From contig JAJRZD010000015.1 in the NCBI GenBank assembly GCA_024275415.1, positions 1 to 32,000 on the forward strand: 32,000 bases of DNA. The letters run 5' to 3'. The stretch comes from an archaeon (lineage in GTDB: Archaea > Asgardarchaeota > Thorarchaeia > Thorarchaeales > Thorarchaeaceae). The notes beneath the pieces were generated by a model, which did no database searches, was not told the DNA's origin, and was given only the letters and a program-made list of their open reading frames with translations. The translations under genes were made by a program, and so were the position numbers. Below are positions 7,057-29,930 of this stretch, in pieces (position 1 is the first letter of the stretch; each line of letters begins with the position of its first letter).

Positions 7057-8292
<1,236 letters not shown>

Positions 8293-8567
8293 CTACCTCC
8301 TTGGTAGTATTCTGGACGATAATGACCAAATTACTCTTTGACATGTCTAAAGTGAAGAATCATTGGGTTCTAGAGATTGCTCCAACGGGGATTGTATAAA
8401 ACCATTTGGATAAGCTCCACCTGTCCATTCATGTTCTGAAATTATATCTTTTTACTAAGACCACACAGTAGAATCTTGTTCCGAATGCTTGTCGTACGTT
8501 TCAATTGCCTATTGTTAGGTCACAGACACGAAGATATACATCCCAAGATTCCTTTCAGTGGTGGTTG

Positions 8568-11219
8568 CTACACTCGTCCTTTCCCAAGAACCTTCTCGAT
8601 AGCGATATCAATGTTCACCGAACGCCCGTGGTCGGACTTGCTCGGATCCACGCCATCATCACCGAACCTGAACTGGACAATCCGTCCAGGGGCAGTCCGG
8701 ACAGTCCCATCGGACTCGACCTTCAGGTCTTGTAAGGCTGTCATGAGCCGTCGCTGCATATACCCAGATGTAGACGTACGTACCGCGGTGTCGACGAGAC
8801 CCTCTCGACCTCCTGCCGCGTGGAACCAGTATTCTATGGGATCCAACCCGCTCTTGTAGCTTGACTTGACGAATCCCCGCGCTCTAGCACCGAGATCACC
8901 ACGTTCGAAGTGAGGAAGGGTTCGTCCGATGTACCCTCGGCTGATACGGCCGCCACGGACAGACTGCTGTCCGACAACAGCTGCCATCTGCGAAAGATTG
9001 AGTCGTGAACCGCGGGCACCAGTCTGTGCCATGATGACAGCAGAGTTCTCCAGACCCAGATGTTCTCCTGCGACAGCACCTGCCGAGTCACGTGCTTCAG
9101 CAAGGGTTGCCTGTATCCGTTGCTCAAGGGTTTCAAGAAGGGTCTGTCCGGGGTTCGCGTCAAGCTCGCCGCGCTTGTATGCCTCGATTAGCTGGTTGAC
9201 TTTCTGGTCTGCTTCTTCGAGGATGATACGGATACGCTCTGATGCCTCGCGGGGCAGTGTGACATCGTTCAGTCCCATTGAAAAGCCACGGTCTGTGATA
9301 AGACGAACCAGCAGTCTACCTACTGAGTCCAGGAACTTCCGTGCGGTGGTGGAACCTCGCTCCTTGATGATCCGATGGAACAGTGAGTCGGGCTCACCTG
9401 CACCGAATGCCTTCTCATCAACGACACCAAAGAGGAGCTCTCCATTGCGGACGACCACATACGAATCGTAAGGACAGTCCTCCATCTCGCACTTGTCGCA
9501 CTTCCTGCAGACGTTTGCCTTGAAGGAGATGTTGATGTCGTCAGGGATGAACAAGCTGAATATCTGCTTCCCAGTCCACAGCGGGATAGGCGCCTTGATG
9601 GCAGGAGCTGGTAGCTCACCAGCAAAACCTGTGACTGCTGTGAGCTGGTTCACTTGGTTCAGGGTGTACAAGCTCGATTTCCGTGTGAGTAGGAATGCTG
9701 CTGAGATATAGTCCTGAAGGGCCCCTATGATGGGACCGCCGTATCGTGGCGACAGGATCTGCTCCTGCACCCTCATCAGAACCCGTGCCTCAGCACGAGC
9801 CTCTTCAGATTGTGGCACATGAAGGTTCATCTCGTCCCCATCAAAGTCTGCGTTGTACGGAGGACAGACGTATAGTGCCAGCCGGAAAGTCCTGTAGGGC
9901 ATCACTCGAACCTCGTGTGCCATGATGGACATCCTGTGCAGTGATGGCTGCCGGTTGAATAGGACGATATCACCCGAGTCCAGATGCCTTTCCACGATGA
10001 ACCCTGGCTCAATCGTGTCCGCGATAATCGACCTGTCCTTCACGAATCGCAGGTCCACTCGCCGCCCATCCGACCGGATGAGATAGTTGCACCCAGGATG
10101 CCTGTCAGGACCCCGAATGACCAAATCCTTCATCCTCTCGATGTTCCACTCCGTCACTCGCTCCGGTATCGTCAGTATCGTCGCAATCTGCTCCGGCACA
10201 CCCACCTCGTTCATGCTCAGGTTCGGGTCGGGGGAAATCACCGTCCGTGCCGAGAAATCCACTCGTTTGCCCGAGAGGTTCGACCTGAATCGCCCCTCTT
10301 TGCCTTTCAGTCGCTGTGAGAGTGTGCGCAACGCCCTCCCCGACCTGTGTCGTGCCGGCGGTATCCCGCTCACTCCATTATCGAAGTAGGTGGTCGTGTG
10401 ATATTGGAGAAGTTCCCATAGGTCCTCGACAATTAATTGTGGCGCTCCAGCTTCTAGGTTTTCACGGAGCCTCTGATTGATACGGATGATGTCAATGAGT
10501 TTATGGCTCAGGTCGTCCTCTGACCTGACACCTGACTCGAGAGTGATAGAGGGTCTTACAGTGACAGGAGGGACGGCAAGAACGGTGAGGATGGACCACT
10601 CAAGCCTAGCGGCTTCGGGGTTGATCCCAAGGAGGCGATAATCATCGTCAAGGATATTCTCCAATCGTGCTCGGATGTCAATAGGAGTGAGCCGGACAGA
10701 GCCTGCGTCGCTGACCTCGTAGATTGAGGTGGGTTTCTCAAGTTTGAGTTTAAGTTGTTCAGATTCACAATGGGGACAGGTCTTAGCCTTGGAGGCGCGT
10801 TTGATGATCTCTTTAGAGAGGTTGGCTGTCTTTTGTCCAATCTCAGGATATCGTTTGAAGAGGCGTTTGAAATGATCTATTTCTTCTTCTGTCAGAAGGA
10901 TGCGTTGACAGGACCTGCACACAGATCGAAGGACTTTGTGTATGACCTTTGCATATCCAGCATGCATCACTGGACGTGCCAGTTCGATATGTCCGAAATG
11001 GCCAGGGCAGTTCCCGACACGGTTTCCGCAGGTTCTACACCGTTGACCAGGGTCAATCACGCCAAGCCGAGTATCCATAATTCCGCTCTCAATAGGATAA
11101 CCATCTTCATCATAAGTGTCGGCTACAACTATCTGGGCGACAGACATCTTACGGATATCATCGGGACTGAGCAACCCGAATTCGATTTCAGCAATCTTCT
11201 TGGTAGTACTAACCATCAT
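8568..11219 (-). CDS. rpoA1: RNA polymerase subunit A' (Rpo1N)
   Basis: YNADFDGDEMN catalytic motif, GHFGHIELARP, GKRVDFSARTVISPDP. Confidence 0.99.
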   Translation of the reverse strand: MMVSTTKKIAEIEFGLLSPDDIRKMSVAQIVVADTYDEDGYPIESGIMDTRLGVIDPGQRCRTCGNRVGNCPGHFGHIELARPVMHAGYAKVIHKVLRSVCRSCQRILLTEEEIDHFKRLFKRYPEIGQKTANLSKEIIKRASKAKTCPHCESEQLKLKLEKPTSIYEVSDAGSVRLTPIDIRARLENILDDDYRLLGINPEAARLEWSILTVLAVPPVTVRPSITLESGVRSEDDLSHKLIDIIRINQRLRENLEAGAPQLIVEDLWELLQYHTTTYFDNGVSGIPPARHRSGRALRTLSQRLKGKEGRFRSNLSGKRVDFSARTVISPDPNLSMNEVGVPEQIATILTIPERVTEWNIERMKDLVIRGPDRHPGCNYLIRSDGRRVDLRFVKDRSIIADTIEPGFIVERHLDSGDIVLFNRQPSLHRMSIMAHEVRVMPYRTFRLALYVCPPYNADFDGDEMNLHVPQSEEARAEARVLMRVQEQILSPRYGGPIIGALQDYISAAFLLTRKSSLYTLNQVNQLTAVTGFAGELPAPAIKAPIPLWTGKQIFSLFIPDDINISFKANVCRKCDKCEMEDCPYDSYVVVRNGELLFGVVDEKAFGAGEPDSLFHRIIKERGSTTARKFLDSVGRLLVRLITDRGFSMGLNDVTLPREASERIRIILEEADQKVNQLIEAYKRGELDANPGQTLLETLEQRIQATLAEARDSAGAVAGEHLGLENSAVIMAQTGARGSRLNLSQMAAVVGQQSVRGGRISRGYIGRTLPHFERGDLGARARGFVKSSYKSGLDPIEYWFHAAGGREGLVDTAVRTSTSGYMQRRLMTALQDLKVESDGTVRTAPGRIVQFRFGDDGVDPSKSDHGRSVNIDIAIEKVLGKGRV

Positions 11220-11220
11220 C

Positions 11221-14200
11221 TTAGATCATCTCCTTGAGTCGCAGCCTAGTGGCCAGACCGAGTGACATCATTTCTTGAATCAGTAATTTGAACGCGTAAG
11301 ACACGACCACATTGCTGATCTTGGATCCAGTGCCGCATATGGGGCAATAGTAGGTATCCCTGTTCCGGTCATAGACACCTATGAGACCACATTCCTCACA
11401 GACGAGCATATTGCTCTTGTCAGACTCATCGAGTAGTCTGCCCTTCAAGAGAATGGCAGCACCGTGTCCGATGAGCACATCACGTTCCATCTCTCCGAAC
11501 CGGAGTCCTCCTTCCCTAGCACGTCCTTCGGTGGGTTGGCGGGTCAAGATCTGGACGGGTCCTCTGGCTCGAGCATGTATCTTGTCTGCGACCATGTGAT
11601 GCAGTTTCTGGTAGTAGATGACACCGATGAAGATGTCAGTCTTCAGTTTCTGTCCGGTGATGCCAGAATACATGACCTCGCGGCCGTTGTGTTTCAGGCC
11701 GTGCTTCTTCATTATTTCGAAGAGTTCCTCTTCAGTCACTCCACAGAAGGGAGTGGCATCTTGTTGTCTGCCAGCCATCGCCCCTGCTTTCCCTGCAATC
11801 ATTTCCATGATCTGGCCGATGGTCATCCGGCTGGGAATTGCATGGGGGTTGATGATGAGGTCAGGCACGACACCGTCCTCGGTAAAGGGAACATCCTGTT
11901 GTGGGACTATGTACCCAATAACGCCCTTCTGTCCGTGACGGGAGGCGTATTTGTCACCAAGCTCGGGGATTCGTAGATCCCTTACTTTTACTTTTACCAA
12001 TCGATTCCCATCGATGGTTTCTGTGAGGATGACGCTATCAACCACTCCTGCCTCGCCATGGCGTACAGCCACTGAGGTCTCTCGGCGGTTGGGGGAAGCA
12101 ATCTCGAATTCCGAGTATTCCTCAAGGAACCGCGGAGGTTAGGTTCTTCCAATTAGGACATCGCCGCCCTGCACCTCGACTTCTGTTTCGATGATACCGT
12201 CCTCGCCAAGGTTCCTGTAGGACTCCGAAGCACGATACCCACGGACACTTCTGTCTGGAACCTCGAAGCGATCCTCCTGACCGCCAGGGTACTTTCGTTC
12301 TTCGCTCTCATAGACACGGGCGAAGGTGCTTCTGCCAAGGCCTCGCTCGATAGAGGCTTTATTCATGATAAGAGCGTCCTCGATATTGTAGCCCTCGAAG
12401 GACAGAATTCCGACCACGAAGTTCTGGCCGGCGGGTCGCTCCTCGAACCCGATGGAATCCATGGCACGGGTCTTGACTATGGGTATCTGTGGATAATGGA
12501 AGAAATGTGAGCGAGTGTCAGCACGGAACTTGAAGTTAGCAGCCGGGACACCCACACTCTGCTTGGCCATCCCTGCCATGTACACGTTACGGGGCGACTG
12601 GTTCCGCTCTGGGAACGGGATGAGTGCTGCCGATATACCAAGAATCGTGGAGGGCACTATCTCAAGATGTGTGGTTCGCGGACCGATATCGTCAGGGGTC
12701 ATGGCAATGAGTGTGTTCTCTTCTTCCTCGGCATCCACAAACTCGACGATGCCATTCCTCAACAAATCCGTGAATGTCCATTCACCATCTGCAACCATGC
12801 GTAGGTGCTCATCTGTCAACCGGCTCTTGCCGTTCTCTACGACTATAACGGGTCTCCTGACACGACCTGCATCGCAATTGACCTGCACCTCGTTCGTGTC
12901 CTCATAATATGCGATATTGACCTCCTCATTGATTTCGCCTGCACGACGCTTCTGCCGGATGGTCTTGGCAAGTACTTGAGGGGCGGGATGGATGCCTACT
13001 AGACGACCGTTAAGAAAGACATCAGCCCATTTCGCACCCCGTTTTCCTCGGAGCTTCTCGATGGATTCTACCTCAGCCTTGTAGAGCGCTCTTTCGACAG
13101 CATCCTCGCCTGTACCTACCGAGATGTATGCCATCATTGCAATGTTTTTGACAAGCCCGCAGTTTGGTCCTTCGGGAGTTTCGTTCGGACATATCTTGCC
13201 CCAATGTGTGGAGTGAAGGTCTCGTGCCTCAAAATGAGGCTGTGATCGTGAGAGGGGGGATACGACTCGTCTCAGGTGAGAGAGAGACGAGATATAGTTC
13301 GTCCGGTCAAGGAGCTGTGACACTCCGGCCTTGCCACCTACCCAATTGCCTGTGGCTAATGCATGCTTCAGGCGCTGTGTGATGACATCGGCGCGTACAG
13401 CTGTCCGGATGTTCGGTTTCCTGCCACGGACTGCTGTCCGTTCGAGTTGATACTTGATATCACGGGTCAGGGAATAGAGTGCCACACGGAACAGCGACAT
13501 GAGTAGGTCACCGGAGAGTTTGAGGCGCTTGTTGGCGTAGTGGTCCTTGTCATCCTGAGTGCGCTTGCCCAGAACGAGCTCAAGCAGACGTTCCACCATC
13601 TGCCCAAGATAGTATGCTTTCTGGAGCCTGTGATGCTCCTCAGTCCCGATGTGTGGAAGCAGGTATCGATCTAGCACTTTCTCTGCGCGCGCAAGACGAT
13701 ACTCTTTGGTCTGACCCACTGCGACTCGTTTCCCAATGAAATCAAGCGCATTGTTCCTAGTAGAGGTCTCTTCATCCTCTTCGCCCCTCATGACATTGAT
13801 TGGTGTTGCCTGCTCTATGGTGACGATGAGCTCGTTTCGAATCTCATCATCATCAGAGATGACTTCGGCAATGTCCCTGTCAGACTCGAGCCCTAGGGCT
13901 TTCATAAGTATCGCAAGAGGAATCTTCCCGGGCACAGATGGGAAAGAAACCCTGAGTTCTCCTGTGCGCTTTCGTTCGATGGTAACTGGTGCACGGAAAC
14001 CCCTGCTTGTCGAGAAGACCTTTGCAATGTGGGTGTAGCTCGAGCTCTTGCTCGCCTCCTCGATAAGGATTCTATTAGGCGCCAAATCCTCCTGTGTTAC
14101 TAAGACGCGCTCAGACCCGTTGATGATGAAGTAGCCTCCCGGGTCATTTGGATCCTCACCGTGCTTGATGAGATCTTCTTCGGACATACCATGAAGAAGA

Positions 14201-14747: not shown

Positions 14748-14889
14748 TGGCGGGCTCGGCGGGAAATTCCACCTCCATGGGAGTCATGGGGGTATTTGAA
14801 CCCGCGGCCCATCCCCGTGCAAAGAGAGAGATGCTCTCTTGCTCTTCAGGTTAAAAGCCTGCTGCGCTACCTAGCTGCGCCACGAGCCC
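14748..14889 (-). tRNA. tRNA-Lys(UUU) with two introns (14811-14845, 35 nt, at about 43/44; 14765-14794, 30 nt, at 59/60)
   Basis: Acceptor stem GGGCTCG/CGAGCCC, loop CTTTTAA, TTCAAAT, encoded CCA; 77 nt after intron removal. Confidence 0.92.
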
Positions 14890-15406
14890 CTATTGCCATA
14901 TGATTCCCGAGCAACGATGAGATGCACGTTGGCATATGACTACCATACAGCATTGCTAACGGTCATGCATGATCTGGGAAGCGGTTGTGCTGAGCACTCG
15001 AATCCACCTGTGTGAAAATAAAAGGTTTTCCTTGGAACGAAATTTAGAGTATCAACTAACTTGGAGATTTGCGGCCTATGAGCTTGTCCACATATTGTAT
15101 TCTGAGGTAAAAAGGATTTTGCTGGCACGGGGAACGTGTCAGGTATAACGGGTAATGGAAGTTCCGGCTGAAAGAAGACGTGTGGAGGTCACAATAAGAC
15201 AGACTGCGACCGGGTTTGTTTATGCCAAGATTGTCCTGCTGGCGTTTTTACTCAATGAGTCGGTCATGGGTCTCTTTTAATACATGTCACAATGTTTTTA
15301 TTATGACCATCGAAAGTCGGCGAGGTTCTACTGGAATGACCGGGAGAGCCGTCTATTCTCTGGACCAGTTGTGCGATCCTGTCCGGAACAAGAGCGTGAT
15401 AATAAC

Positions 15407-16060
15407 ATGTCATCAAGAAGTCGTCAAGCAGCGGCACGAACAAGGGACAAATGGAGAGAGAAAGTCTGGTATCAAATCAGGTCTCCGGAGTATTTTGGCG
15501 AGAAGGATATCGGGATGACCCCTGCTGGAAACCCCGAGTTATTGATCGGTCGCACTGTAAAACCCACGCTCTACGATTTGACAGGTAATTTCGACCAAAT
15601 CCATGTGAAGCTGAGATTCAAAATCATCGAGGTTGTAGGTCAGGAGGCTAAGACCGTATTTCACGGTCATGAATGGAGTTCAGATTATCTCAGAGGGCTA
15701 GTCAGGAGAGGTACTTCTCGTATCGACTGGATAGGCCCTATTCTTACAAAAGATGACTACCTCATGCGGATCTCCGTAATCGTATTCACTACGTCACGGT
15801 CAAAGACCAGTCAGGAGCATTCAGTTAGGAAAGCTATCGAGAAGGTCATCAGGGCACATGCAAAGAAGCATGTCTTTGACGAGCTGGTCACTAAGGTCGT
15901 CCTTGGCGAGCTTGCTTCGGAAGTCCGTGAAGAGGTCAAGAAGATAGTACCGATCCGAGAATGTGAGATTCGAAAGAGCAAAGTGCTCAAAGGGCCCGAA
16001 GAGGTCAAGGCGCGCAGAGCAAGGCTTCGAAGGGGCACCGAGAAGAAGAAGTCGGGCTAG
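15407..16060 (+). CDS. rps3ae: 30S ribosomal protein eS1 (S3Ae)
   Basis: DKWREKVWY, GRTVKPTLYDLTG, YLRGLVRRGTSRID, EIRKSKVL; start at ATG 15407. Confidence 0.96.
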   Translation: MSSRSRQAAARTRDKWREKVWYQIRSPEYFGEKDIGMTPAGNPELLIGRTVKPTLYDLTGNFDQIHVKLRFKIIEVVGQEAKTVFHGHEWSSDYLRGLVRRGTSRIDWIGPILTKDDYLMRISVIVFTTSRSKTSQEHSVRKAIEKVIRAHAKKHVFDELVTKVVLGELASEVREEVKKIVPIRECEIRKSKVLKGPEEVKARRARLRRGTEKKKSG

Positions 16061-16136
16061 ACCTGTCCCTCAAGTCAGAGGGACAGATGTGTGCTCTCAG
16101 ACGCAGACCATTCACAATCAGGCAATATTACCCAGT

Positions 16137-16490
16137 TCAGGCATTCATCCGTTTCAGCTTGTCAAGCGCCTGAAGAAGAAGCACCATCAGGTTGGCAAGT
16201 TTTGTGAGGGCCTCTGTATCGTTCTCTCGTTCTATGAGGACATTAAGCGTTCTTAGCTTGATGAGGAGTGTTTCTTTGAGTTCTGGGAGCAGTTCTTTCA
16301 CAGTCCGTGTTTCGACTTCCTCATCAGAAGATGCATAGACAATCCTCCTGTCGCACATCGCACAATAGATGTCATCACCCACCTTGAGGAGGGGTGTCCC
16401 GCACTTAGGACAACCATCTGCAAGCATTGTCGCACCCTGCTGTAACAACTGGGCCATCCTCTTCACCGATGTGTCCTTTCTATCGTTCAT
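16137..16490 (-). CDS. UPF0148/Auto_anti-p27 zinc-ribbon protein
   Basis: LLQQGATMLADGCPKCGTPL...CAMC; start at ATG 16490. Confidence 0.85.
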   Translation of the reverse strand: MNDRKDTSVKRMAQLLQQGATMLADGCPKCGTPLLKVGDDIYCAMCDRRIVYASSDEEVETRTVKELLPELKETLLIKLRTLNVLIERENDTEALTKLANLMVLLLQALDKLKRMNA

Positions 16491-16652
16491 CGTGAATCCA
16501 GTGATGGATGTCCTCAATCCTTTATGAGAGTTGTTGGATGCTATGTACATCCATTCCTCTGCCGAAAGAATGATATGAGGATGTTATCCACCTCTCACTT
16601 GTTAGTTCGCACTGCATTTCGTGCGTCGAGACAATTTCAGAGGTGAGTCCCA

Positions 16653-16916
16653 ATGGACCCCGAAGTACAGAGAAGCATAGACCAATCAAAGCACCTTTTG
16701 AGGCAAATCGCTGATGACTCGTCAGTGCCTCGAAACATAAGACGTGCAGCCAATGAAGCTATTGCGGTTCTTGAGAATGAGAGCGATTCACCTGCTGTCA
16801 GGGCTCAGAATGCGATTGCAATACTTGATGACCCTAGTCAGGATCCGAACTGTCCGAACCATGCCCGAACTAAAATCTGGCATGTATCCAGTTTACTGGA
16901 ACCAATTCGCGACTAG
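16653..16916 (+). CDS. UPF0147 family protein
   Basis: DSSVPRNIRRAA, LDDPSQDPNCPNHARTKIW. Confidence 0.9.
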   Translation: MDPEVQRSIDQSKHLLRQIADDSSVPRNIRRAANEAIAVLENESDSPAVRAQNAIAILDDPSQDPNCPNHARTKIWHVSSLLEPIRD

Positions 16917-16999
16917 AGCTAGTGCGGACCAAGAACTGAGATTCGTACCTTCCTGTCAAAGAGAAGGTCTGTAGCTCATGTAGCACGGACGGAAAATGC

Positions 17000-18457
17000 G
17001 TGATTAAGGCTCGAATAAGAGGAATCTATTCACAATCATTGACGCGGATAATGCTGCAGAACCATTTTGAGATGGTTCAACCTACTCCTGAAGTGGCTAG
17101 AAGGTTTGGCCTCCCCTATCGAGCGGAAATCCCAGATGTTGATATCTGGGATAGAAGTGACCTACAGGGCATCGTGGCCATTGCTTACGAGTCAATCCTG
17201 AGAAAGCTCACCGATGTGCTTCGGAGAAGGCTTGGATGGGTGATAACCCGCACCCCAAGAGTCGCAAAGAGCTCAATCTACAAGGGAGTTGTGATAGGTA
17301 GGGATGATAAGACTGGATACACTCGCGTGAACATAGGGCCAATCATTGGGTTGCTACCAGAGTTTTCTCCCGAAAGGGGAAGGTCTATCATGGTTCAAGT
17401 GAAAGCGCATGATTATGGTCGGAAAGCACCAGTACTCTCCTCTAACATCACGATTCCGGGAAAAGCCGCCGTACTTCTTCCAGATCCTGTCGTTCGGCTG
17501 AGCACCAAAATCAAGGGACAAAAAGAACGTGGGAGCCTCTTGGCGATAGGAAGGAAACTGAGAGTTCATACAGAGCCATGGGGAATCCTCTGGAGGACAG
17601 CAGCAACTAGGCTCACTGATGAAGAACTCTACAATGAGATTGAGAACCTGTTGGACACTGCACAAAAGATAGAGGATAGCTTCAATCAGATTGCAGAAAC
17701 TGGTCTCCTGTTCGAGGGAACCAGCAATGCGGATATAGAGTTCCCAGCAGAGGTGAAAGAAGCACTGGATAAGACCCGTGCGAAGATACGACCGACCATC
17801 CAACATCATCATTTCTACAAGAGTGCTGGATATGCTTCGTTAGTGGATTTCGCAGAGATGATGATTGAAGATAGGCCAAATGACCGTGAATATGTCAGGT
17901 CGAAGCTCGAAAAGGTGATTGGCAGGGATATGCCCAAAGTTGAAGATCCCATCAATATAGTGCACACGAAACTAGACGGACGCTGCATAGTATTGTCGAA
18001 AGGAAGAGTTGTGGATAGCAATAACAATGCGTTTCTGATACGAAGACAGTTCAGGCATACCACACGAAAGCTAAAGATGACTCCTGAAAGCGTTGACGGT
18101 GTAGTTGTTCCTAGAGATGAAGGCGACTATTCCATCACGAGGGTAGTTCCAGGGTCGATGATCCTCATCACAGACTATTATTCACGAGAGAACAAACATA
18201 AGGGAACCTATGTGAATATCAACACTGGTGTAGAGGTATATCCAAGCAATGGTTCTGTCCCGAGCACTATACGGTATGTTGACCTTGAGATAGATGTTGT
18301 CGCACCAAAGAGAGGACAGACACGAATCATCGATCAGCATCTCCTGAAGCGTGCTGTACAAAGGGGATTCATAACTGAGGAAATGGCAGACCTAGCACGG
18401 GCAAAGGCAAAGGCGGAGTATAGACGCTTGGTATCGAATGTGAAAAGTATTGCATGA
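17000..18457 (+). CDS. fau-1: FAU-1-like ribonuclease (RNase G/E-like plus DUF402)
   Basis: ARIRGIYSQSLT, GILWRTAA, GTYVNINTGVE, YVDLEIDVV. Confidence 0.88.
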   Translation: MIKARIRGIYSQSLTRIMLQNHFEMVQPTPEVARRFGLPYRAEIPDVDIWDRSDLQGIVAIAYESILRKLTDVLRRRLGWVITRTPRVAKSSIYKGVVIGRDDKTGYTRVNIGPIIGLLPEFSPERGRSIMVQVKAHDYGRKAPVLSSNITIPGKAAVLLPDPVVRLSTKIKGQKERGSLLAIGRKLRVHTEPWGILWRTAATRLTDEELYNEIENLLDTAQKIEDSFNQIAETGLLFEGTSNADIEFPAEVKEALDKTRAKIRPTIQHHHFYKSAGYASLVDFAEMMIEDRPNDREYVRSKLEKVIGRDMPKVEDPINIVHTKLDGRCIVLSKGRVVDSNNNAFLIRRQFRHTTRKLKMTPESVDGVVVPRDEGDYSITRVVPGSMILITDYYSRENKHKGTYVNINTGVEVYPSNGSVPSTIRYVDLEIDVVAPKRGQTRIIDQHLLKRAVQRGFITEEMADLARAKAKAEYRRLVSNVKSIA

Positions 18458-18458
18458 G

Positions 18459-18707
18459 TCATTCTAACGATTCACATGTGCGAATTGCAAGATCAATCGC
18501 GCTCATGATGTCCTCTATCGTCGCACTGAAACTATTGATACCCCGATTGCACTTGATATAAATCCTAAGAGATTCATTAACTGTTTCAGAACATATCTCG
18601 ATTCCTGTTGGGAGTGGCGAATTATCAGGGCTGATTGCTTGTAGGACGAGATTGGCATCAGTAGATGATTTGAATTCTAGTTCGATGGTTGCTTGCAGAA
18701 CGGTCAT
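18459..18707 (-). CDS. pcc1: KEOPS subunit Pcc1
   Basis: Size 82 aa, AISPDN motif, position after the DHH gene in the rps15 cluster. Confidence 0.75.
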   Translation of the reverse strand: MTVLQATIELEFKSSTDANLVLQAISPDNSPLPTGIEICSETVNESLRIYIKCNRGINSFSATIEDIMSAIDLAIRTCESLE

Positions 18708-20023
18708 GCCTCCTTGAGAAGTATTGTCAAAGCTTCTATTATGGTTTCATGGGTGTCAGCAGAAGTATCCGGTATCCTGACCGCTCTTGCTGAAACAGAC
18801 GAGTGTTCGATAGCCCTATTGAAAAGTGCAGCTGACACGGAGAATAACGTGAGTGGTTTCTTCCATACCAAGGTGGTTGACCCTTCAGAAACCATTATGA
18901 CGAACATGCACTCCTTAGTAATGTTAGAATCAAGAGCTATGCGTCCTACATCAGCAAGCGTGTGTTCTGAGAGGGCTCTTGTGTCTACAATGACATAAGT
19001 ACTGGAGATATCTACGCTACCATCGTTCTCATCCAACAGAATATTCAACTTGGCGACATCTGAAATGGTTTCCTTGCAATGGCGTCGATATTCAGATATC
19101 ATGTCTGAGAGAGATCGAGCACGATCTCCAATCAAGACGCTCAACAGAACTCCTGTGATTTGTCTGCTCCATGCCATACGTGCGAGGGAAGATATACTTG
19201 AGAGATATCGCAGAGGGCTTGTCCGAGGTTCTAACAGGAATTCATAGTCATTGCCAAGGATATGTTCCACTACTGAAGGATGTAATGATGGTAAGAGCAC
19301 TCCGTTAAGTTGGCGAGCTTCGTCGGATGCAAGCTCGCTGAGAGGGGATCTCCACTTGCTGAAACGTATGCCTGCGTCATCAAAAATCTTCTGGCAGGCT
19401 TCAGGATTACCACTGAGCGAGTCAAGATAGGGATAGATGTTATTTGTAAATACCTCATCTAAAGTGAGAAAGTTGAAACCAGGAATCTTGAAGCCTTTTC
19501 GAGGGGCAAGCAGTCCTTCCTCGACCGAAGTTTGGATTATCTTAGAAGCTTCGTTTCCAGAGGCATCCTGAAGCAGTGAGCCGATTGCAGCAAGGGCCAC
19601 TTCAGCAGCCTCAATGTCCATCGTTGCCAATCCAAATGCACAAGCCTCGACGGCAGCAGGGGATGAAACAGGTTCCTTTTTGATAGAGGTGGTCTTAGGA
19701 TAGAACGTACCTCCAATCGGAAGAAAACAGTCGGGGTTGCTTGGTTTACCAATGACATTAACGCCAACCGACAAAATCAGTGTTTCAGTGCCATCATAAT
19801 AGTACTTCTCAGCTTGGGCGACAGGGATGATGGGGTTGCAAAAGGTCACATGAAAGAGAAACTTTGCTCGTAATGCCGCACGACAGAGTATTGATGTTGC
19901 TGTTACAGAGTGAGGTAGATAAGAACTGATAATCACGACCTTTTTGAAACTCTTCAGATCAATATCTACGAATCTGCTCTTGAGCTGATTCCTAAGAGAA
20001 TCAGGGAGGATGCTATCAGTCAT
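18704..20023 (-). CDS. Degenerate DHH/RecJ-Cdc45-like protein
   Basis: Conserved rps15-DHH-pcc1 synteny; RecJ-like layout with no intact DHH motif. Confidence 0.65.
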   Translation of the reverse strand: MTDSILPDSLRNQLKSRFVDIDLKSFKKVVIISSYLPHSVTATSILCRAALRAKFLFHVTFCNPIIPVAQAEKYYYDGTETLILSVGVNVIGKPSNPDCFLPIGGTFYPKTTSIKKEPVSSPAAVEACAFGLATMDIEAAEVALAAIGSLLQDASGNEASKIIQTSVEEGLLAPRKGFKIPGFNFLTLDEVFTNNIYPYLDSLSGNPEACQKIFDDAGIRFSKWRSPLSELASDEARQLNGVLLPSLHPSVVEHILGNDYEFLLEPRTSPLRYLSSISSLARMAWSRQITGVLLSVLIGDRARSLSDMISEYRRHCKETISDVAKLNILLDENDGSVDISSTYVIVDTRALSEHTLADVGRIALDSNITKECMFVIMVSEGSTTLVWKKPLTLFSVSAALFNRAIEHSSVSARAVRIPDTSADTHETIIEALTILLKEA

Positions 20024-20059
20024 CTCAAGGAGGACAAGACAGAGTGACCCATGATAAAA

Positions 20060-20518
20060 TTATCTAAGGAGCACCGCGGCCTTGTCAGGCGAGTATTTCC
20101 AGTCGGCAGGAAGAACCTGTTTCTTTCGATAATATTTTGAGAGCCTGTGAATCTTGCTCTCGACAAGCTGGAGTCCCCGTTTGGAAACAAAGTCTTTCTT
20201 TCCGTGTTCCTCAAGGTGGCGCCTAATCTTGAGTGCCTTTGCGATCATGTTCCGCAAATCCTCAGGAACTCTGCGCTGAAGGTCATGTTCTTTGATAATC
20301 TGATTGATTCTTTTGCCGGTAATCACTTTCACAAGGGGGATTCCATACTGGTCACGAAGGATCAGCCCAATCATGCTTGGAGTGTTACCTGCCTTTGCAA
20401 GCTCTACAACTTTCTCTTCGATCCAAGCTGCATCCTTGTCCATCCATTCAGGGACTTGTAGTGTAGATGGGCGCTTGCTACTTGACTGACCTTTTCGTCG
20501 TGTGTGCATTCTTGCCAT
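20060..20518 (-). CDS. rps15: 30S ribosomal protein uS15
   Basis: MARMHTRRKGQSSSKRP, LRDQYGIP, ESKIHRLSKYY. Confidence 0.98.
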   Translation of the reverse strand: MARMHTRRKGQSSSKRPSTLQVPEWMDKDAAWIEEKVVELAKAGNTPSMIGLILRDQYGIPLVKVITGKRINQIIKEHDLQRRVPEDLRNMIAKALKIRRHLEEHGKKDFVSKRGLQLVESKIHRLSKYYRKKQVLPADWKYSPDKAAVLLR

Positions 20519-20638
20519 AGTGTTAACCTCTTGAGGGGAAGGTTTGACATAAACCGGCTATTCTCGATGGGCTTAGGACTGTGGATATAAACATTATCGT
20601 TTGTACGACATCGCCGGCAAAGGATTGACAAGCACATG

Positions 20639-21274
20639 TCAATGATACCGGCCTCGCTCACGAATCGCATCCATCCTTTCGAGAACAGGCTCAGCCTCTT
20701 TGCCCAACTCATCTACGTACCCTTCAATCGTTCGTGAGAGCATATTCTCTTGCATATCCCAATGCGATGTTTCCAACGCCCGTTTGATGAGGTGCAAGTC
20801 CACCCCTTTCATCTCAACAGTGGCGTTCATTTCAGACAGACCAAAATCAATTATCCATGTTTTTTCATTTGAAGTTATCAACAAATTGCTGGTAGTAGGA
20901 TCTCCGTGAACCATCCCACCCCGATGGAGTTTGGCAATGATGCGACCAAAGCGATAACACAAGTTCCCCAAGGTGGTCGAGCCCAGTGTTGAAGCGACCT
21001 GCTTCAGAGGTGTTCCGGGAATATAATCCATCAAGATGCTATAATCATTAAGGTCAATAGCATGCACAGCGGGGGTGGGCACTCCAAGAGACCGCGCAAC
21101 ATTGAGACCCTTGCATTCGCGGCTAGTCCTACTTGCTCGAAGTGAACTGTCGATAGCAGGGATGAGATAGGGTTTACTGGGACGTGTCTTCAGGACAAAT
21201 GACCGATCCCATAGCGCGACCTTTGTGATGATCGATTCTGCTCCAATGGCTATGTGTGCTCCCTCAAGTCTCAT
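20639..21274 (-). CDS. bud32: KEOPS kinase Bud32
   Basis: GAES, VHGDPTTSN, IDFGLS, KGVDLHL; ATGA overlap with the kae1 stop. Confidence 0.93.
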   Translation of the reverse strand: MRLEGAHIAIGAESIITKVALWDRSFVLKTRPSKPYLIPAIDSSLRASRTSRECKGLNVARSLGVPTPAVHAIDLNDYSILMDYIPGTPLKQVASTLGSTTLGNLCYRFGRIIAKLHRGGMVHGDPTTSNLLITSNEKTWIIDFGLSEMNATVEMKGVDLHLIKRALETSHWDMQENMLSRTIEGYVDELGKEAEPVLERMDAIRERGRYH

Positions 21275-22257
21275 TCTTTCCACCCGATATCCTGTTCATC
21301 AGTCCTCCATTTCGGGAGGACTCCCGAAGATGAAATTTCAAGGGTATCGCCAACCCCATATTGCAGAATCCCAGTCCATGCAATCATCGCGCCTTGATCC
21401 CCAGCCAGAGGAGGAGACACACGATGGAATCTTGCACCATGCCGGTCTGCCACACCTTGGAGTATCTCTGTGAGCCTGTTATTCCTTGCAACGCCACCTG
21501 TTAGGAGTACTTCATTCTTCTTTGTATGCGCAATCGCCCGTTCAGCAACCTCTGCCAGCATCCCAAAAGCTGTTTCTTGGATGCTATAGCAGATGTCATC
21601 CAGAGGCAGTCCTTCGTCAAAAAGACGACGCGCAGACGTGAGCATTCCCGAATAGCTTATGTCCATCCCTTTCACGGAATATGGAAGCGTATGATATGTA
21701 GAACCCATTTTTGCCAATTTCTCGACCTTTGGACCCGCTGGGAACCGCATCCCCACATGTCTTCCAAAGACATCAAGCATATTCCCAATCGCAATATCAA
21801 GAGTTTCGCCAAAGGTACGGTATCTACCTCCTGCAAAGGCGATGACCTGAGAGTTCCCGCCCGATACATAGATGGTGACTGGGTCATTAAAACCAGACTC
21901 CAAGCTTCCAATCTCTATGTGTGCCACACAGTGATTGACACCAATCAATGGTACTCCCAGATGGAGGGACAATGATCGCGCCATGGTGGCAGTAGTGCGT
22001 AGGCACGGTCCAAGACCTGGGCCTTGTGAAAAAGCGATAATGTCAATTTGCTTAGGGGAAATGCCGGCATCATCGATAGACTGCCGTATCAGTAATGGAC
22101 CAAGATACGCATGGTGCTGACTTGCCTCGCGCGGGTGTATTCCGCCCTCATCAGGTCGTAACATGTCCCATACATTCGATAACACCAGACCCTCACTAGA
22201 AACAATCCCTGCACCGAATGAATGAGCGGTTCCTTCCAGACCGAGGCAGATGGTCAT
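21271..22257 (-). CDS. kae1: tRNA threonylcarbamoyltransferase Kae1
   Basis: LGLEGTAH, HPREASQHH, VNHCVAHIE, YVSGGNS, GDQGAMIA; start at ATG 22257 or 22290. Confidence 0.97.
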   Translation of the reverse strand: MTICLGLEGTAHSFGAGIVSSEGLVLSNVWDMLRPDEGGIHPREASQHHAYLGPLLIRQSIDDAGISPKQIDIIAFSQGPGLGPCLRTTATMARSLSLHLGVPLIGVNHCVAHIEIGSLESGFNDPVTIYVSGGNSQVIAFAGGRYRTFGETLDIAIGNMLDVFGRHVGMRFPAGPKVEKLAKMGSTYHTLPYSVKGMDISYSGMLTSARRLFDEGLPLDDICYSIQETAFGMLAEVAERAIAHTKKNEVLLTGGVARNNRLTEILQGVADRHGARFHRVSPPLAGDQGAMIAWTGILQYGVGDTLEISSSGVLPKWRTDEQDIGWKE

Positions 22258-22364
22258 ACTGATATGCTCCTTGCACTTGTTGACCAGCATCTTCTTGACG
22301 CTGTCATGCTTTGTAGCAAAGCCTTTATAATCCACACTAAGGGGCACATCGAGAGGTAAAGGCA

Positions 22365-22610
22365 ATGTCACACGAAAAAATGCCCATCAAAGCACTCGAG
22401 CAGAACATCCACGAAATTGTATCAATCAAGCTCAAGGATCAACGGATTTTCAGAGGGCGCCTGTCCCGATGTGACGTCTATATGAACCTCACTCTGGAAG
22501 ACGCTGAGGAACTCGTGCTTGGAGGGGATGAAACAACGACCATTGCCAAGTATGGCGAGATTCTTCTGAGAGGGAACAACATCCTCTGGATACAGATTCC
22601 CGAGGAATAG
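22365..22610 (+). CDS. Sm-like (SmAP/Lsm) protein
   Basis: Sm1 motif GRLSRCDVYMNLTLEDAEE and Sm2 motif ILLRGNNI. Confidence 0.93.
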   Translation: MSHEKMPIKALEQNIHEIVSIKLKDQRIFRGRLSRCDVYMNLTLEDAEELVLGGDETTTIAKYGEILLRGNNILWIQIPEE

Positions 22611-22748
22611 ATGTGCTGCTTCGTTTCGATAGTGAGCAATAGGTGGCCAAAGCATCCAATTAGTCCCTTCGATGTTTTATAACGACAACTTTAATATAAA
22701 ACCGAGATTCGATGCAGATTACCTGATGTGCATCATCAGGACAACAGA

Positions 22749-22886
22749 GCCCCTGTAGTGTAGTCCGGCCTAGCATTCAAGACTGTCAATCCAATGCGAT
22801 TGGCATCTTGGAGCGGACCTCTTGAGACCCGGGTTCAAATGTGTCCATGATTCCCATGAACATTGGAAATCCCGGCGGGGGCGCCA
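22749..22886 (+). tRNA. tRNA-Asp(GUC) with two 30-nt introns (22789-22818 at 37/38; 22840-22869 at 59/60)
   Basis: Stem GCCCCTG/CGGGGGC, mature loop CTGTCAC, both introns fit BHB geometry, encoded CCA. Confidence 0.93.
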
Positions 22887-27094: not shown

Positions 27095-27231
27095 TGGTCG
27101 GGACGGCCGGATTTGAACCGGCAACCGATGGATAGCTGTGAACGCCATCCGAACTGGCAGCTCTCTACAGTCCATTGCTTATGGCCCGATACTCGGAAGA
27201 GTATCGGACTGCCAGATTGAGCTACGTCCCG
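27095..27231 (-). tRNA. tRNA-Tyr(GUA) with two introns (27180-27208, 29 nt, at 22/23; 27134-27164, 31 nt, at 37/38)
   Basis: C1-G72 and A73 identity elements, loop CTGTAGA, central helices TGGC/GCCA and CTGT/ACAG, encoded CCA. Confidence 0.94.
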
Positions 27232-27389
27232 GGTGAGCAAACCGCAGTATTGTTTTGCCTATAAGGATTACTCCGTGGCATTTGCTATCTAGATGTGGCG
27301 GGTCTGGACATGTTAATTGAAGAGGCAGTAGATAATACGTACCACACAGGTTTTAACTGGTTCGCGGTGGCCATCTCAATGAGTTTGCA

Positions 27390-27608
27390 ATGTCCGAAAG
27401 AATATGCAATACCAAAAGGAACCTCGAACGATGTGGTTGTTCATATCCGGGATGCTCTCGCAAGGGCTATTGTTGTGACTGTCTGGACTACCACTGGAAG
27501 CATCGGGAACTCCCAGGGTGCCTTTTCCCAAAAGAGGCTGAGAGAACATACAATAGGTCACTCGAGTATTTCCTAGAGGTCTGGACAGAAAAGCTTGGAA
27601 AGAGCTAG
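27390..27608 (+). CDS. Small Cys-rich protein (DUF6485-like)
   Basis: CGCSYPGCSRKGYCCDC..YH...ELPGC.FP..ERTYNRS. Confidence 0.8.
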   Translation: MSERICNTKRNLERCGCSYPGCSRKGYCCDCLDYHWKHRELPGCLFPKEAERTYNRSLEYFLEVWTEKLGKS

Positions 27609-27616
27609 AAATCTGA

Positions 27617-27694
27617 TGGCGGGCCCGCCAGGATTTGAACCTGGGACATCCAACTTCGAAGGCTGGCGCCCTATCCAGACTAGACTACGGGCCC
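27617..27694 (-). tRNA. tRNA-Arg(UCG), intronless
   Basis: Full cloverleaf, loop CTTCGAA, encoded CCA. Confidence 0.96.
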
Positions 27695-27887
27695 CGATAC
27701 TCCAATTTTGGATTTCCCTTTAAGCTCTTCTGTATCATCATGATTAAGGATCAGAGGTACGATCAGTAGACTGGGGACATGAAGCTTAAAGGTGAAAGTA
27801 GGTCGAGGTATTATATCGACAAAGGAACACTCCTCATTGCAATCTGTTGTTGCTGTTCTGTCCGCCCTTAAATATACGCCAAAGTTT

Positions 27888-27985
27888 TGGCGGGCCCGGT
27901 GAGATTCGAACTCACGAAAACCAACTTTCTCCGAATGTATTGATTATAGGAGGCTGGTGCCCTATCCTGGCTAGGCAACGGGCCC
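27888..27985 (-). tRNA. tRNA-Arg(CCU) with a 20-nt intron at 37/38 (27927-27946)
   Basis: Central helix CTCC/GGAG with 3-nt bulges; encoded CCA. Confidence 0.93.
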
Positions 27986-28030: not shown

Positions 28031-29296
28031 TCATTGAGCGACTCTTGCAGTAATGGAGGCTCCTTCTTCCATGGCATCTACGATCATGCTGCCTTGGCGG
28101 GTCTTGATACGGATAGAGCTCTCACCGTTCCGTCCGACCATGATAGTGGTCAGGTACATATCATCGGCGAAAATCTCAAGGCGTTGCTTGGCATATTTTC
28201 GTCCCGCGTGGATCGTGACCTTCTTCTTGGAGTAGCTGATTGAAACCTTGACTGTTTCACCGGGTCTGGCACGACGTGCCACCTGTTCTCTTGAAGTGGT
28301 GCGGGGGCCTCCTCTAACTGGGACAACGACCTTCTCGCCTCCGAAAGTGAACATCTCGTATTCTAACACACCAAGCTCGAAGTCACGAACCTCCACTACC
28401 GGTCGCGCGAGGTCTCGTTGGGAGCTGCTCATCCCGGTGGGCATCTTCACCTTCAATGAGAGAGATGACACCTTCGCCACTCGCCCTGCTTCAATATGGA
28501 TGACTGTATCCACAGTGCTTGGAAGTTGACCAAGTTCTACCCGGCCCCCAAGGGTAAGACGCTGAATTGCATCGATTGATGAACCTGCATGGACAACTCC
28601 CACCATTCCAACTCCGGCAGATCGCAGGTCAGCATAGGCTGAGAAATCACTTGATTTCCGCAATTCGTCGTATATCACGTAGTCAGGTCGGACAAGAAGA
28701 AGGATATCGGCTGCTTTCTCCATGCTCTTGTCAAGAGGAGAGTATTGTACGATGTCATCCGACACTTGAAGGTCACGCGGTTGTTCGAGAGTCTTTACTA
28801 CGTTACCCTTCTTGCTGTAGAATTCGGCAAGCGCAGCAGAAAAAGTCGACTTGCCAGAGCCAGGACTGCCAGTAACGAGAATTCCTTCGGCACGTGTTTC
28901 CAATCGCTTCATCAACTTCGGGCTGAGGTCATAATCGCCAATTGCAAGCTTCTTGATTGGCCTGATTGCAGAGATTTCGTATTTGTCAGCGAAAGGAGGC
29001 ATAGCGATGGCTATCCGCAGATTTCTTAACTGGACGACGGCAGCACCTTCCTCCTCAATCTCGATGAATGACTGACGGTCGTTCCGAGCGGTTTCGATAA
29101 TTGCCTCAGCTAAGATATCGAGTTCCTCATGAGTAAGGATTCTGTCAGATAGCTCCACCAATGACCAATCACCAGGAGCACCGCGTTTTGCACGGGGAGG
29201 GTTGTTCTCAATCAAGTGCACACTCATGGTGTGTTCGTCAAAGAAAGCGTCCAGCTTTAGGAGCTCCTCATCATCATCAATCCAGTCATCATTCAT
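28031..29296 (-). CDS. PINA/MJ1533-like ATPase lacking the N-terminal PIN domain
   Basis: Walker A GSPGSGKST, Walker B YVIYDE, GMVGVVHA, RDLARPVVEVRDF; start at ATG 29296. Confidence 0.85.
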   Translation of the reverse strand: MNDDWIDDDEELLKLDAFFDEHTMSVHLIENNPPRAKRGAPGDWSLVELSDRILTHEELDILAEAIIETARNDRQSFIEIEEEGAAVVQLRNLRIAIAMPPFADKYEISAIRPIKKLAIGDYDLSPKLMKRLETRAEGILVTGSPGSGKSTFSAALAEFYSKKGNVVKTLEQPRDLQVSDDIVQYSPLDKSMEKAADILLLVRPDYVIYDELRKSSDFSAYADLRSAGVGMVGVVHAGSSIDAIQRLTLGGRVELGQLPSTVDTVIHIEAGRVAKVSSLSLKVKMPTGMSSSQRDLARPVVEVRDFELGVLEYEMFTFGGEKVVVPVRGGPRTTSREQVARRARPGETVKVSISYSKKKVTIHAGRKYAKQRLEIFADDMYLTTIMVGRNGESSIRIKTRQGSMIVDAMEEGASITARVAQ

Positions 29297-29930
29297 CGTT
29301 CGTGTTCTCTCCAATCTTGCGAAGTTTCGTCTGAGCGACCTTGTAGTAGTTGACCTCCCCATTCTGATCAACAAGCGCGAACAACAGGTTCTTTCGAGCA
29401 GCAACCGCTGCGTCAGTAACCATGTTCAGGTCGTGCAGCGATATGGGATTTCCTTCCTTCATGACGTAGATTAGTTGTTTTGCTGTAGCCACGCCAGGCT
29501 TATCACCACGAGCATAGACCCTGAACCCGATTCCGCCACCGAATCCTTGACGGACAGCATATCCCCTGCTACGCAGATCTCGGAAGACCAAATACTTCAC
29601 CCAAAGATTCGGGTCTTCAGGCAACAGCGTCTTTACAATGTAGGGTGCACCGATTCTTGTACCATCAGGAAGAGAGAGAGTAATGCGCTTCCTTTCGAGA
29701 AGGTGCAAAATCTCGATGGGTTCGAGTTCTAATCGTCCATCATCAAGACGGGCACCATAGAAGCCTTGTTGTGATATCCTGTCAGCATCGCTTCGGTTCA
29801 CATACCCTTTCAGATTTTCGAATATCATCTCTGAAGGTTCTTCCTCAGTTTCATCGGCATCCTCTTCTTTTTGTTCTGCCAAACCGGGTGTCATTTGAGG
29901 ATTGCTTTCGTCGGGATCGGACAAATTCAT
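29289..29930 (-). CDS. endA: tRNA-splicing endonuclease subunit, probably structural (β)
   Basis: YLVFRDLRSRGY, FRVYARG, RKNLLFALVDQNGEVNYY; catalytic Tyr and His positions appear substituted. Confidence 0.88.
   Translation of the reverse strand: MNLSDPDESNPQMTPGLAEQKEEDADETEEEPSEMIFENLKGYVNRSDADRISQQGFYGARLDDGRLELEPIEILHLLERKRITLSLPDGTRIGAPYIVKTLLPEDPNLWVKYLVFRDLRSRGYAVRQGFGGGIGFRVYARGDKPGVATAKQLIYVMKEGNPISLHDLNMVTDAAVAARKNLLFALVDQNGEVNYYKVAQTKLRKIGENTNDE

Follow-up and report, generated by a model that had tools for sequence, protein, structure and literature searches.

Published cases in which the machinery that splices transfer RNA (tRNA) also processes an archaeal protein gene come down essentially to one, the pre-mRNA of cbf5, whose splicing has reportedly been shown experimentally (literature of Watanabe 2002, Yoshinari 2006 and Yokobori 2009). 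The cbf5 intron of Crenarchaeota is the established archaeal mRNA intron of the bulge-helix-bulge (BHB) type; it is patchily present in relatives, and both gain and loss have been inferred for it (PMC2738675). Here, a 30-nucleotide (nt) insert in rpoA2, the gene for RNA polymerase subunit A'', is described from a member of the Thorarchaeia (Asgard archaea; GenBank assembly GCA_024275415.1). The analyzed window comprises positions 1 to 32,000 of contig JAJRZD010000015.1, that is, a stretch of 32,000 nt on contig C117 of the source genome, a 3.5-Mb draft with 47% guanine-cytosine content referred to below as G000. The best overall explanation of the insert is probably that of an archaeal tRNA-type intron residing inside the rpoA2 mRNA and drawn from the population of mini-introns that interrupt the tRNA genes of this lineage. 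Like the cbf5 intron, it is patchily present among relatives; it differs in its host, which is the trigger loop of A'' in an Asgard lineage, in following the same 30-nt template as the tRNA introns, and in being known from sequence alone.

Two groups of archaea offer the closest comparisons on the side of the tRNA introns. In Thermoproteales, as relayed by PMC4090602 and bioRxiv 10.64898/2026.10.13.758758 from Sugahara 2008 and Fujishima 2010, intron families with at least 80% identity span tRNA types. On this second-hand account, the Thermoproteales resemble the present lineage in their many introns at non-canonical positions and in the occurrence of related introns at different sites, with the BHB requirement restricting siting, and differ from it in that here the best cross-gene pair reaches 60% identity and the common features are a layout and a loop motif. 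Among Asgard archaea, Atabeyarchaeia and Freyarchaeia/Jordiarchaeia possess heavily interrupted tRNA genes with a median intron of 22-23 nt (PMC11291895; bioRxiv 10.64898/2026.10.13.758758), and the latter preprint reports no general copying between tRNA genes. These archaea share with the present genome the Asgard affiliation and an abundance of tRNA introns, non-canonical and multiple, that escape standard finders, whereas here the modal length is 30 nt and the hairpin has a fixed 9+5+9 form. Neither Thorarchaeia nor mRNA introns are mentioned in these two papers on Asgard tRNA introns, and a full-text literature search returned no report of an intron in rpoA2.

The insert in the rpoA2 trigger loop

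The reading frame of rpoA2, on the minus strand of the window, falls into two parts. Exon 1 (8013..8244), delimited from the open reading frame and its translation, ends with the first base of a Phe codon and carries the motif seen in 30 relatives; its start codon is taken, as a guess, to be the ATG at 8244. The approximately 320 nt that separate this first ATG from the rpoA1 stop codon at 8568 (8245-8567, same strand) hold no obvious reading frame. Exon 2 (7057..7982) opens with the remaining two bases of the Phe codon, encodes the Pfam domain RNA_pol_Rpb1_5 and ends with a stop codon at 7057-7059. The intervening 30 nt (7983..8012, minus strand), AATCACGTACATTTCGTACGTGATGTGAAA, divide into A / ATCACGTAC / ATTTC / GTACGTGAT / GTGA / AA. 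The insert places TAA in frame at its 5' junction, directly after the codon ACA, and exon 2 resumes with TT CAC TAT. Excision of exactly 30 nt yields TLRTFHYAGV, the trigger-loop motif, which 27 of the 30 genes read from relatives carry without interruption, other Asgard families included.

A 30-nt insert in the same codon is present in G000, in G006 (same genus) and in G007 (another genus), that is, in 3 of the 86 genomes of the family. Two metagenome contigs (L041 and L044) have it too, which makes five independent assemblies. The remaining pattern matches in the genome and metagenome collections, beyond the four archaeal ones, were rejected as chance matches in bacteria. In G000 the stem is a perfect 9-bp helix closed by the loop ATTTC. 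Across the five sequences, five of the nine stem pairs show compensatory changes and 97.8% of the cells are paired, and neither shuffles nor slid registers of the five inserts reach the observed covariation and pairing. The apical 11 nt, TACAUUUCGUA, made up of the loop with the three pairs that close it (TACATTTCGTA), are invariant among the five carriers, the third codon positions of whose genes are only 35-46% identical. The exon side is distinctive as well: CGC ACA precedes the junction in all five carriers and supplies the exon tetramer GCAC, which pairs with the intron tetramer GUGA or GUGU, and GCAC occupies this site in one of 19 intron-less members of the family, the carriers' intron-less sisters having GAAC or AGAAC.

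The predicted folds agree with a BHB intron of a relaxed kind. For the G007 version, minimum-energy folding gives exactly a helix, a 3-nt bulge and a 9-bp hairpin; the hairpin of the G000 version has a fold z-score of -3.1, and the 5' bulge is canonical (AU|A). The combination of helix, bulge and intron helix that broad-specificity endonucleases accept is therefore present, but the strict hBHBh' motif, with a 4-bp central helix and two 3-nt bulges, is not. Two features accordingly speak against a conventional BHB intron and make the motif relaxed rather than strict: the central helix has three of four pairs in four of the five versions (four of four in G007), and neither the relatives' sequences nor the folds reveal a conserved outer exon-exon helix that would close the 3' bulge. 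The combined evidence of reading frame, covariation and conserved tetramer makes it very probable that the rpoA2 insert is spliced as a BHB intron.

The host encodes the splicing endonuclease and the ligase on which such introns depend. One paralogue of the tRNA-splicing endonuclease EndA lies in the window (29289..29930, minus strand; PF01974, 70 bits), a second is found on contig C69 (PF01974, 102 bits), and a single RtcB ligase is encoded on contig C127. A cluster of three tRNA genes (27095-27985), two of them intron-bearing, lies about 1.3 kb from the EndA gene of the window. Asgard EndA is reportedly an (alpha-beta)2-type enzyme, with an L1 loop for broad specificity (PMC5829648).

In the mechanism proposed for rpoA2, the insert would fold in the transcript into a 9-bp hairpin with the pentaloop AUUUC, and the four intron bases 3' of this hairpin (GUGA, or GUGU in G007) would form a short helix with GCAC, which the exon contributes from its Arg-Thr codons. 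The 5' splice site would then lie in the 3-nt bulge AU|A and the 3' site, AA|U, just past the short helix. A heteromeric endonuclease composed of the two EndA paralogues is envisaged to cut after the second bulge base on either side, and RtcB to join the exons into ...CGCACAU followed by UUCACUAU, thereby restoring the Phe codon and TLRTFHYAGV. An unspliced message would terminate at the junction TAA. As the insert length is divisible by three, read-through of an unspliced message would add ten residues to the trigger loop of A'', an outcome that the conserved TAA would prevent.

A layout and a loop shared with tRNA introns

The tRNA introns of this genome are poorly visible to standard tools. 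ARAGORN and an Rfam search at the gathering threshold missed both the tRNA-Lys and the tRNA-Asp gene of the window; a permissive Rfam search recovered tRNA-Lys as a partial, sub-threshold match (28.7 bits) and still missed tRNA-Asp. Standard finders recover about 30 tRNA genes in G000, and a search with a loose acceptor-stem anchor gave mostly noise. The Lys and Asp genes were rebuilt by excision of BHB-like introns and comparison with intron-less orthologues. Such excision across G000 gave a catalogue of 35 rebuilt tRNA genes with 32 introns, 13 of them exactly 30 nt and 26 between 28 and 33 nt long.

Two of the rebuilt genes, both with encoded CCA and two introns, are central to the comparison. 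The gene for tRNA-Lys(UUU) (14748..14889, minus strand) equals, after removal of the introns, the intron-less orthologues of G004, G012 and G010. Its T-loop intron at position 59/60 (14765..14794; TACCCCCATGACTCCCATGGAGGTGGAATT) is 30 nt long and divides into T / ACCCCCATG / ACTCC / CATGGAGGT / GGAA / TT, and its 43/44 intron, whose boundaries follow from the intron-less orthologues, has 35 nt (14811..14845). The gene for tRNA-Asp(GUC) (22749..22886, plus strand), rebuilt and compared with its orthologues in the same manner, has a canonical 30-nt intron at 37/38 (22789..22818), delimited by BHB removal and orthologue comparison, and a 30-nt T-loop intron at 59/60 (22840..22869; TGTGTCCATGATTCCCATGAACATTGGAAA) of the form T / GTGTCCATG / ATTCC / CATGAACAT / TGGA / AA. 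Both T-loop introns are inserted between TTCAAA and T, each has eight of nine stem pairs, and the T stem serves both as outer helix; removal of the introns gives cloverleaves that match the intron-less orthologues.

The layout of these introns, abbreviated 1+9+5+9+4+2, consists of one bulge base, a 9-bp stem with a 5-nt pyrimidine-rich loop, a tetramer that is proposed to pair with the exon, and two bulge bases. With at least seven of nine stem pairs as the threshold, 16 tRNA introns of G000 fit this register, and they are situated at 37/38, 43/44, 53/54, 56/57, 58/59 and 59/60, in the D loop and in the variable arm. In other genera, the orthologues of the Asp and Lys introns retain the layout with quite different stems. 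Since so many introns fit and the orthologues retain it, the layout can be regarded as the standard of the mini-introns of this lineage, and the rpoA2 intron matches it base for base. The gene for tRNA-Lys(CUU) on contig C10 of G000 (33964-34129, plus strand) contains three introns, of which those at 43/44 and 56/57 have the 30-nt layout with the loops ATTCC and ATTTC. The first-pass annotation, made from the window alone, had ascribed one architecture to the Lys, Asp and rpoA2 introns; the layout and the loop are indeed found in rpoA2, but as 16 tRNA introns fit, the architecture is a norm of the lineage and no mark of these three. The same annotation had placed the shared architecture at 14765-22869, a range that holds the Lys and Asp introns and leaves outside both the rpoA2 insert and the gene for tRNA-Tyr(GUA) (27095..27231, minus strand). 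The latter bears the 29-nt D-arm intron that had been described (22/23, 27180-27208; 9-bp stem, TTCC loop) and a 31-nt intron at 37/38 (27134-27164).

Of the 17 introns in register, 7 have a loop of the form A(C/T)T(C/T)C, or AYTYC, which is frequent in this template: three carry ATTTC, three ATTCC and one ACTCC. The background is a set of 14,912 genomic hairpins with a 5-nt loop, 0.58% of which show the motif, and the enrichment in introns is about 65-70-fold; when the three introns that defined the motif are left out, it is found in 4 of 14, with an estimated binomial probability of approximately 1e-6 at the background rate. This enrichment is the main positive link that places the rpoA2 intron in the population of tRNA introns, and membership is further suggested by the common template, of which the host site constrains the tetramer only. 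The palindromic tetramers on either side of the rpoA2 loop, GTAC and CATG in the first-pass annotation, exist in G000 and are not conserved, the G007 intron having ATAC and GTAT in their place.

Homology in primary sequence is a different matter. The T-loop introns of tRNA-Lys and tRNA-Asp do share the position and the core that had been quoted for them, the 14-mer CCATGAYTCCCATG, of which the window holds two copies where 0.02 would be expected. Similarity was evaluated against a structure-preserving null in which stem pairs and loops are permuted. The Lys and Asp introns are the most similar pair of the set, and their apical 15 nt agree in 13 positions (P ~0.009); this shared apical 14 nt may stem from copying or gene conversion. 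Several points weigh against kinship of the rpoA2 and tRNA introns. Over the whole length the Lys and Asp introns agree in 18 of 30 positions (60%), which the null reaches in 26% of trials (P 0.26), and, the loop apart, the rpoA2 intron resembles the tRNA introns of G000 no more than chance would have it, its best match being 10 of 15 in the apical nt (P 0.13) and 15 of 30 over the whole length. Orthologous Asp and Lys introns in relatives diverge about as much as Lys from Asp, the common layout and loop could be selected rather than inherited, and the catalogue of introns is incomplete, with 35 tRNA genes rebuilt and multi-intron genes partly missed. Identities of about 70-80% or more across tRNA genes or positions of one genome, typical of a transposing family, are absent from the set of G000 introns compared. 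The earlier proposal of a family of short introns that spreads between genes is partly supported, by the layout and loop of the rpoA2 insert; in primary sequence, the Lys/Asp apical 15 nt alone stand out.

The strongest competing explanation is convergence, in which the splicing enzyme or fast folding of the RNA imposes the 30-nt layout and the pyrimidine-rich pentaloop, so that the Lys, Asp and rpoA2 introns arose without a common ancestor. We know of no requirement of EndA, which recognizes the BHB, for a particular loop or stem length of the intron, and the apical agreement of 13/15 between Lys and Asp exceeds the structure-preserving null. The invariance of the rpoA2 loop and its closing pairs, set against the covarying outer stem, argues for selection on the loop, as convergence would predict. 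The layout at no fewer than eight tRNA positions in introns whose stems have no common sequence points in the same direction, as does its retention by orthologous introns at one site despite complete turnover of the stem. Other Asgard lineages provide arguments of both kinds: almost no intron families are common to different tRNA types there, as convergence would have it, but the median intron is 22-23 nt with the same enzyme type (bioRxiv 10.64898/2026.10.13.758758), and hence 30 nt is not a general demand. Convergence is possible but, on these data, rather unlikely, and we lean, without great assurance, towards deriving the rpoA2 intron from the population to which the tRNA introns belong.

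Distribution, history and remaining explanations

The gene tree of rpoA2 agrees with the taxonomy, each carrier being paired with an intron-less sister, and its branches with good support require no fewer than four gains or losses of the intron. Although G000 and G006 are no sister species and have 42% identity at third codon positions, their rpoA2 introns agree in 29 of 30 nt; the exon bases that flank the junction differ between them. This likeness fits either strong selection on the whole intron combined with repeated precise loss, or a recent lateral arrival of the intron alone.

Introns of the tRNA genes are also patchily distributed. The 59/60 intron of tRNA-Lys is missing in the four congeners with a complete gene (G003-G006; the copies of G001 are cut short) and present, with other stems, in three other genera, and a fourth genus (G018) has an intron at 58/59. 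Orthologues of the 43/44 intron were found in G001, G003, G005, G008, G011, G013 and G018. At the 59/60 site of tRNA-Asp, introns with different stems occur in four species of the genus and two other genera (G001, G003, G004, G011 and G018 besides G000). A recent copy from Asp to Lys would fit this distribution, and so would old introns with many losses. Among the tRNA-Lys(UUU) orthologues (loci L076-L102), the introns vary by genus between the anticodon loop, 43/44, 53/54, 58/59 and 59/60, and some species have none; intron turnover inside this one family is rapid.

The apical 13-mer of the rpoA2 intron, RTACATTTCGTAY, has 29 matches in the 86 genomes against 25 for a reversed control, so that there is no overall excess. 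Only five of the matches have 9-bp stems, namely the three rpoA2 introns and the 58/59 intron of tRNA-Leu(CAA) in G070 and G072. The latter is a T-loop intron from another genus, located near position 1500 of L124 (G070) and L125 (G072), with the sequence A CAATCATAC ATTTC GTATGATTG GAAC AA. At the apical end it matches the rpoA2 intron of G007 in all 15 nt; by a rough count this match could have originated by chance, and it is treated as a lead.

The spread of these introns by reverse splicing, with which the patchy occurrence is compatible, is regarded as doubtful. A bolder and similarly tentative proposal is that the 30-nt introns of Thorarchaeia might form one mobile population that enters tRNA genes and mRNAs alike, with the tetramer alone adapting to each site. 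The AYTYC pentaloop and its closing pairs would then function in mobility or splicing, for example as a protein-binding site or a fast-folding nucleus, and the near-identity of the G000 and G006 rpoA2 introns despite saturated synonymous sites would reflect a recent lateral insertion of the intron alone.

Further mRNA introns, which the first-pass annotation had anticipated from a genome-wide search for such hairpins and loops, did not come to light in G000. The scan considered hairpins of at least 8 bp with a 4-6-nt loop and at least three central pairs that join two open frames of 50 codons or more; it yielded 200 candidates, of which 16 combined a perfect stem with an internal stop, and rpoA2 was the only one with protein-like flanks on both sides. 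Hairpins with AYTYC or AATCC loops outside tRNA genes were dismissed as short, mismatched, and located in ordinary frames or intergenic. The rpoA2 gene belongs to an operon on the minus strand of the window that comprises, by Pfam and open reading frame annotation, rpoB, rpoA1, rpoA2, L30e, NusA, S12 and S7. In rpoB, TAA stands in frame at 12139-12141 (minus strand) in place of the Ser codon (TCA, TCT, TCG or AGT) of six relatives. It was rejected as a second mRNA intron, being a single-base difference that replaces the Ser codon with no insert, and could reflect either a nonsense variant or a fault in the assembly.

Two further explanations of the rpoA2 insert can be set aside as highly improbable. 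Programmed translational bypassing is known from phage T4 gene 60, whose take-off codon is followed by a stop codon and a hairpin. Ribosomes might hop over the 30 nt of rpoA2 in the same manner, since TAA comes directly after the last sense codon, ACA, with a stable hairpin right behind it, but the codon preceding the resumed frame, AAA in G000 or UUA in G007, does not match ACA as a landing codon should, the Phe codon needs bases from both sides of the insert, which hopping is incapable of providing, the exon and intron tetramers pair as in BHB introns, and the layout is common to sixteen tRNA introns. It is just as improbable that rpoA2 is a pseudogene, that it is split into two polypeptides or that the 30 nt are misassembled: although the rpoB TAA is at least one instance in this assembly of an essential gene with an odd in-frame stop, the insert recurs with compensatory changes in five independent assemblies, no in-frame start codon follows it, a break would lie within the trigger loop, and rpoA2 is single-copy in G000 with both exons otherwise intact and conserved.

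Implications for Asgard archaea

With the intron as the preferred reading of the rpoA2 insert, an essential RNA polymerase subunit would seem, in an Asgard archaeon related to the eukaryotic ancestor, to rely on the tRNA-splicing machinery at its catalytic trigger loop. Inserts of this kind cause gene callers to split or truncate essential genes and conceal most tRNA genes from standard finders. The conserved pentaloop is a concrete, testable feature, and the rpoA2 locus ties the question of how tRNA introns arrived in Asgard archaea to a presence or absence that can be read in close relatives.

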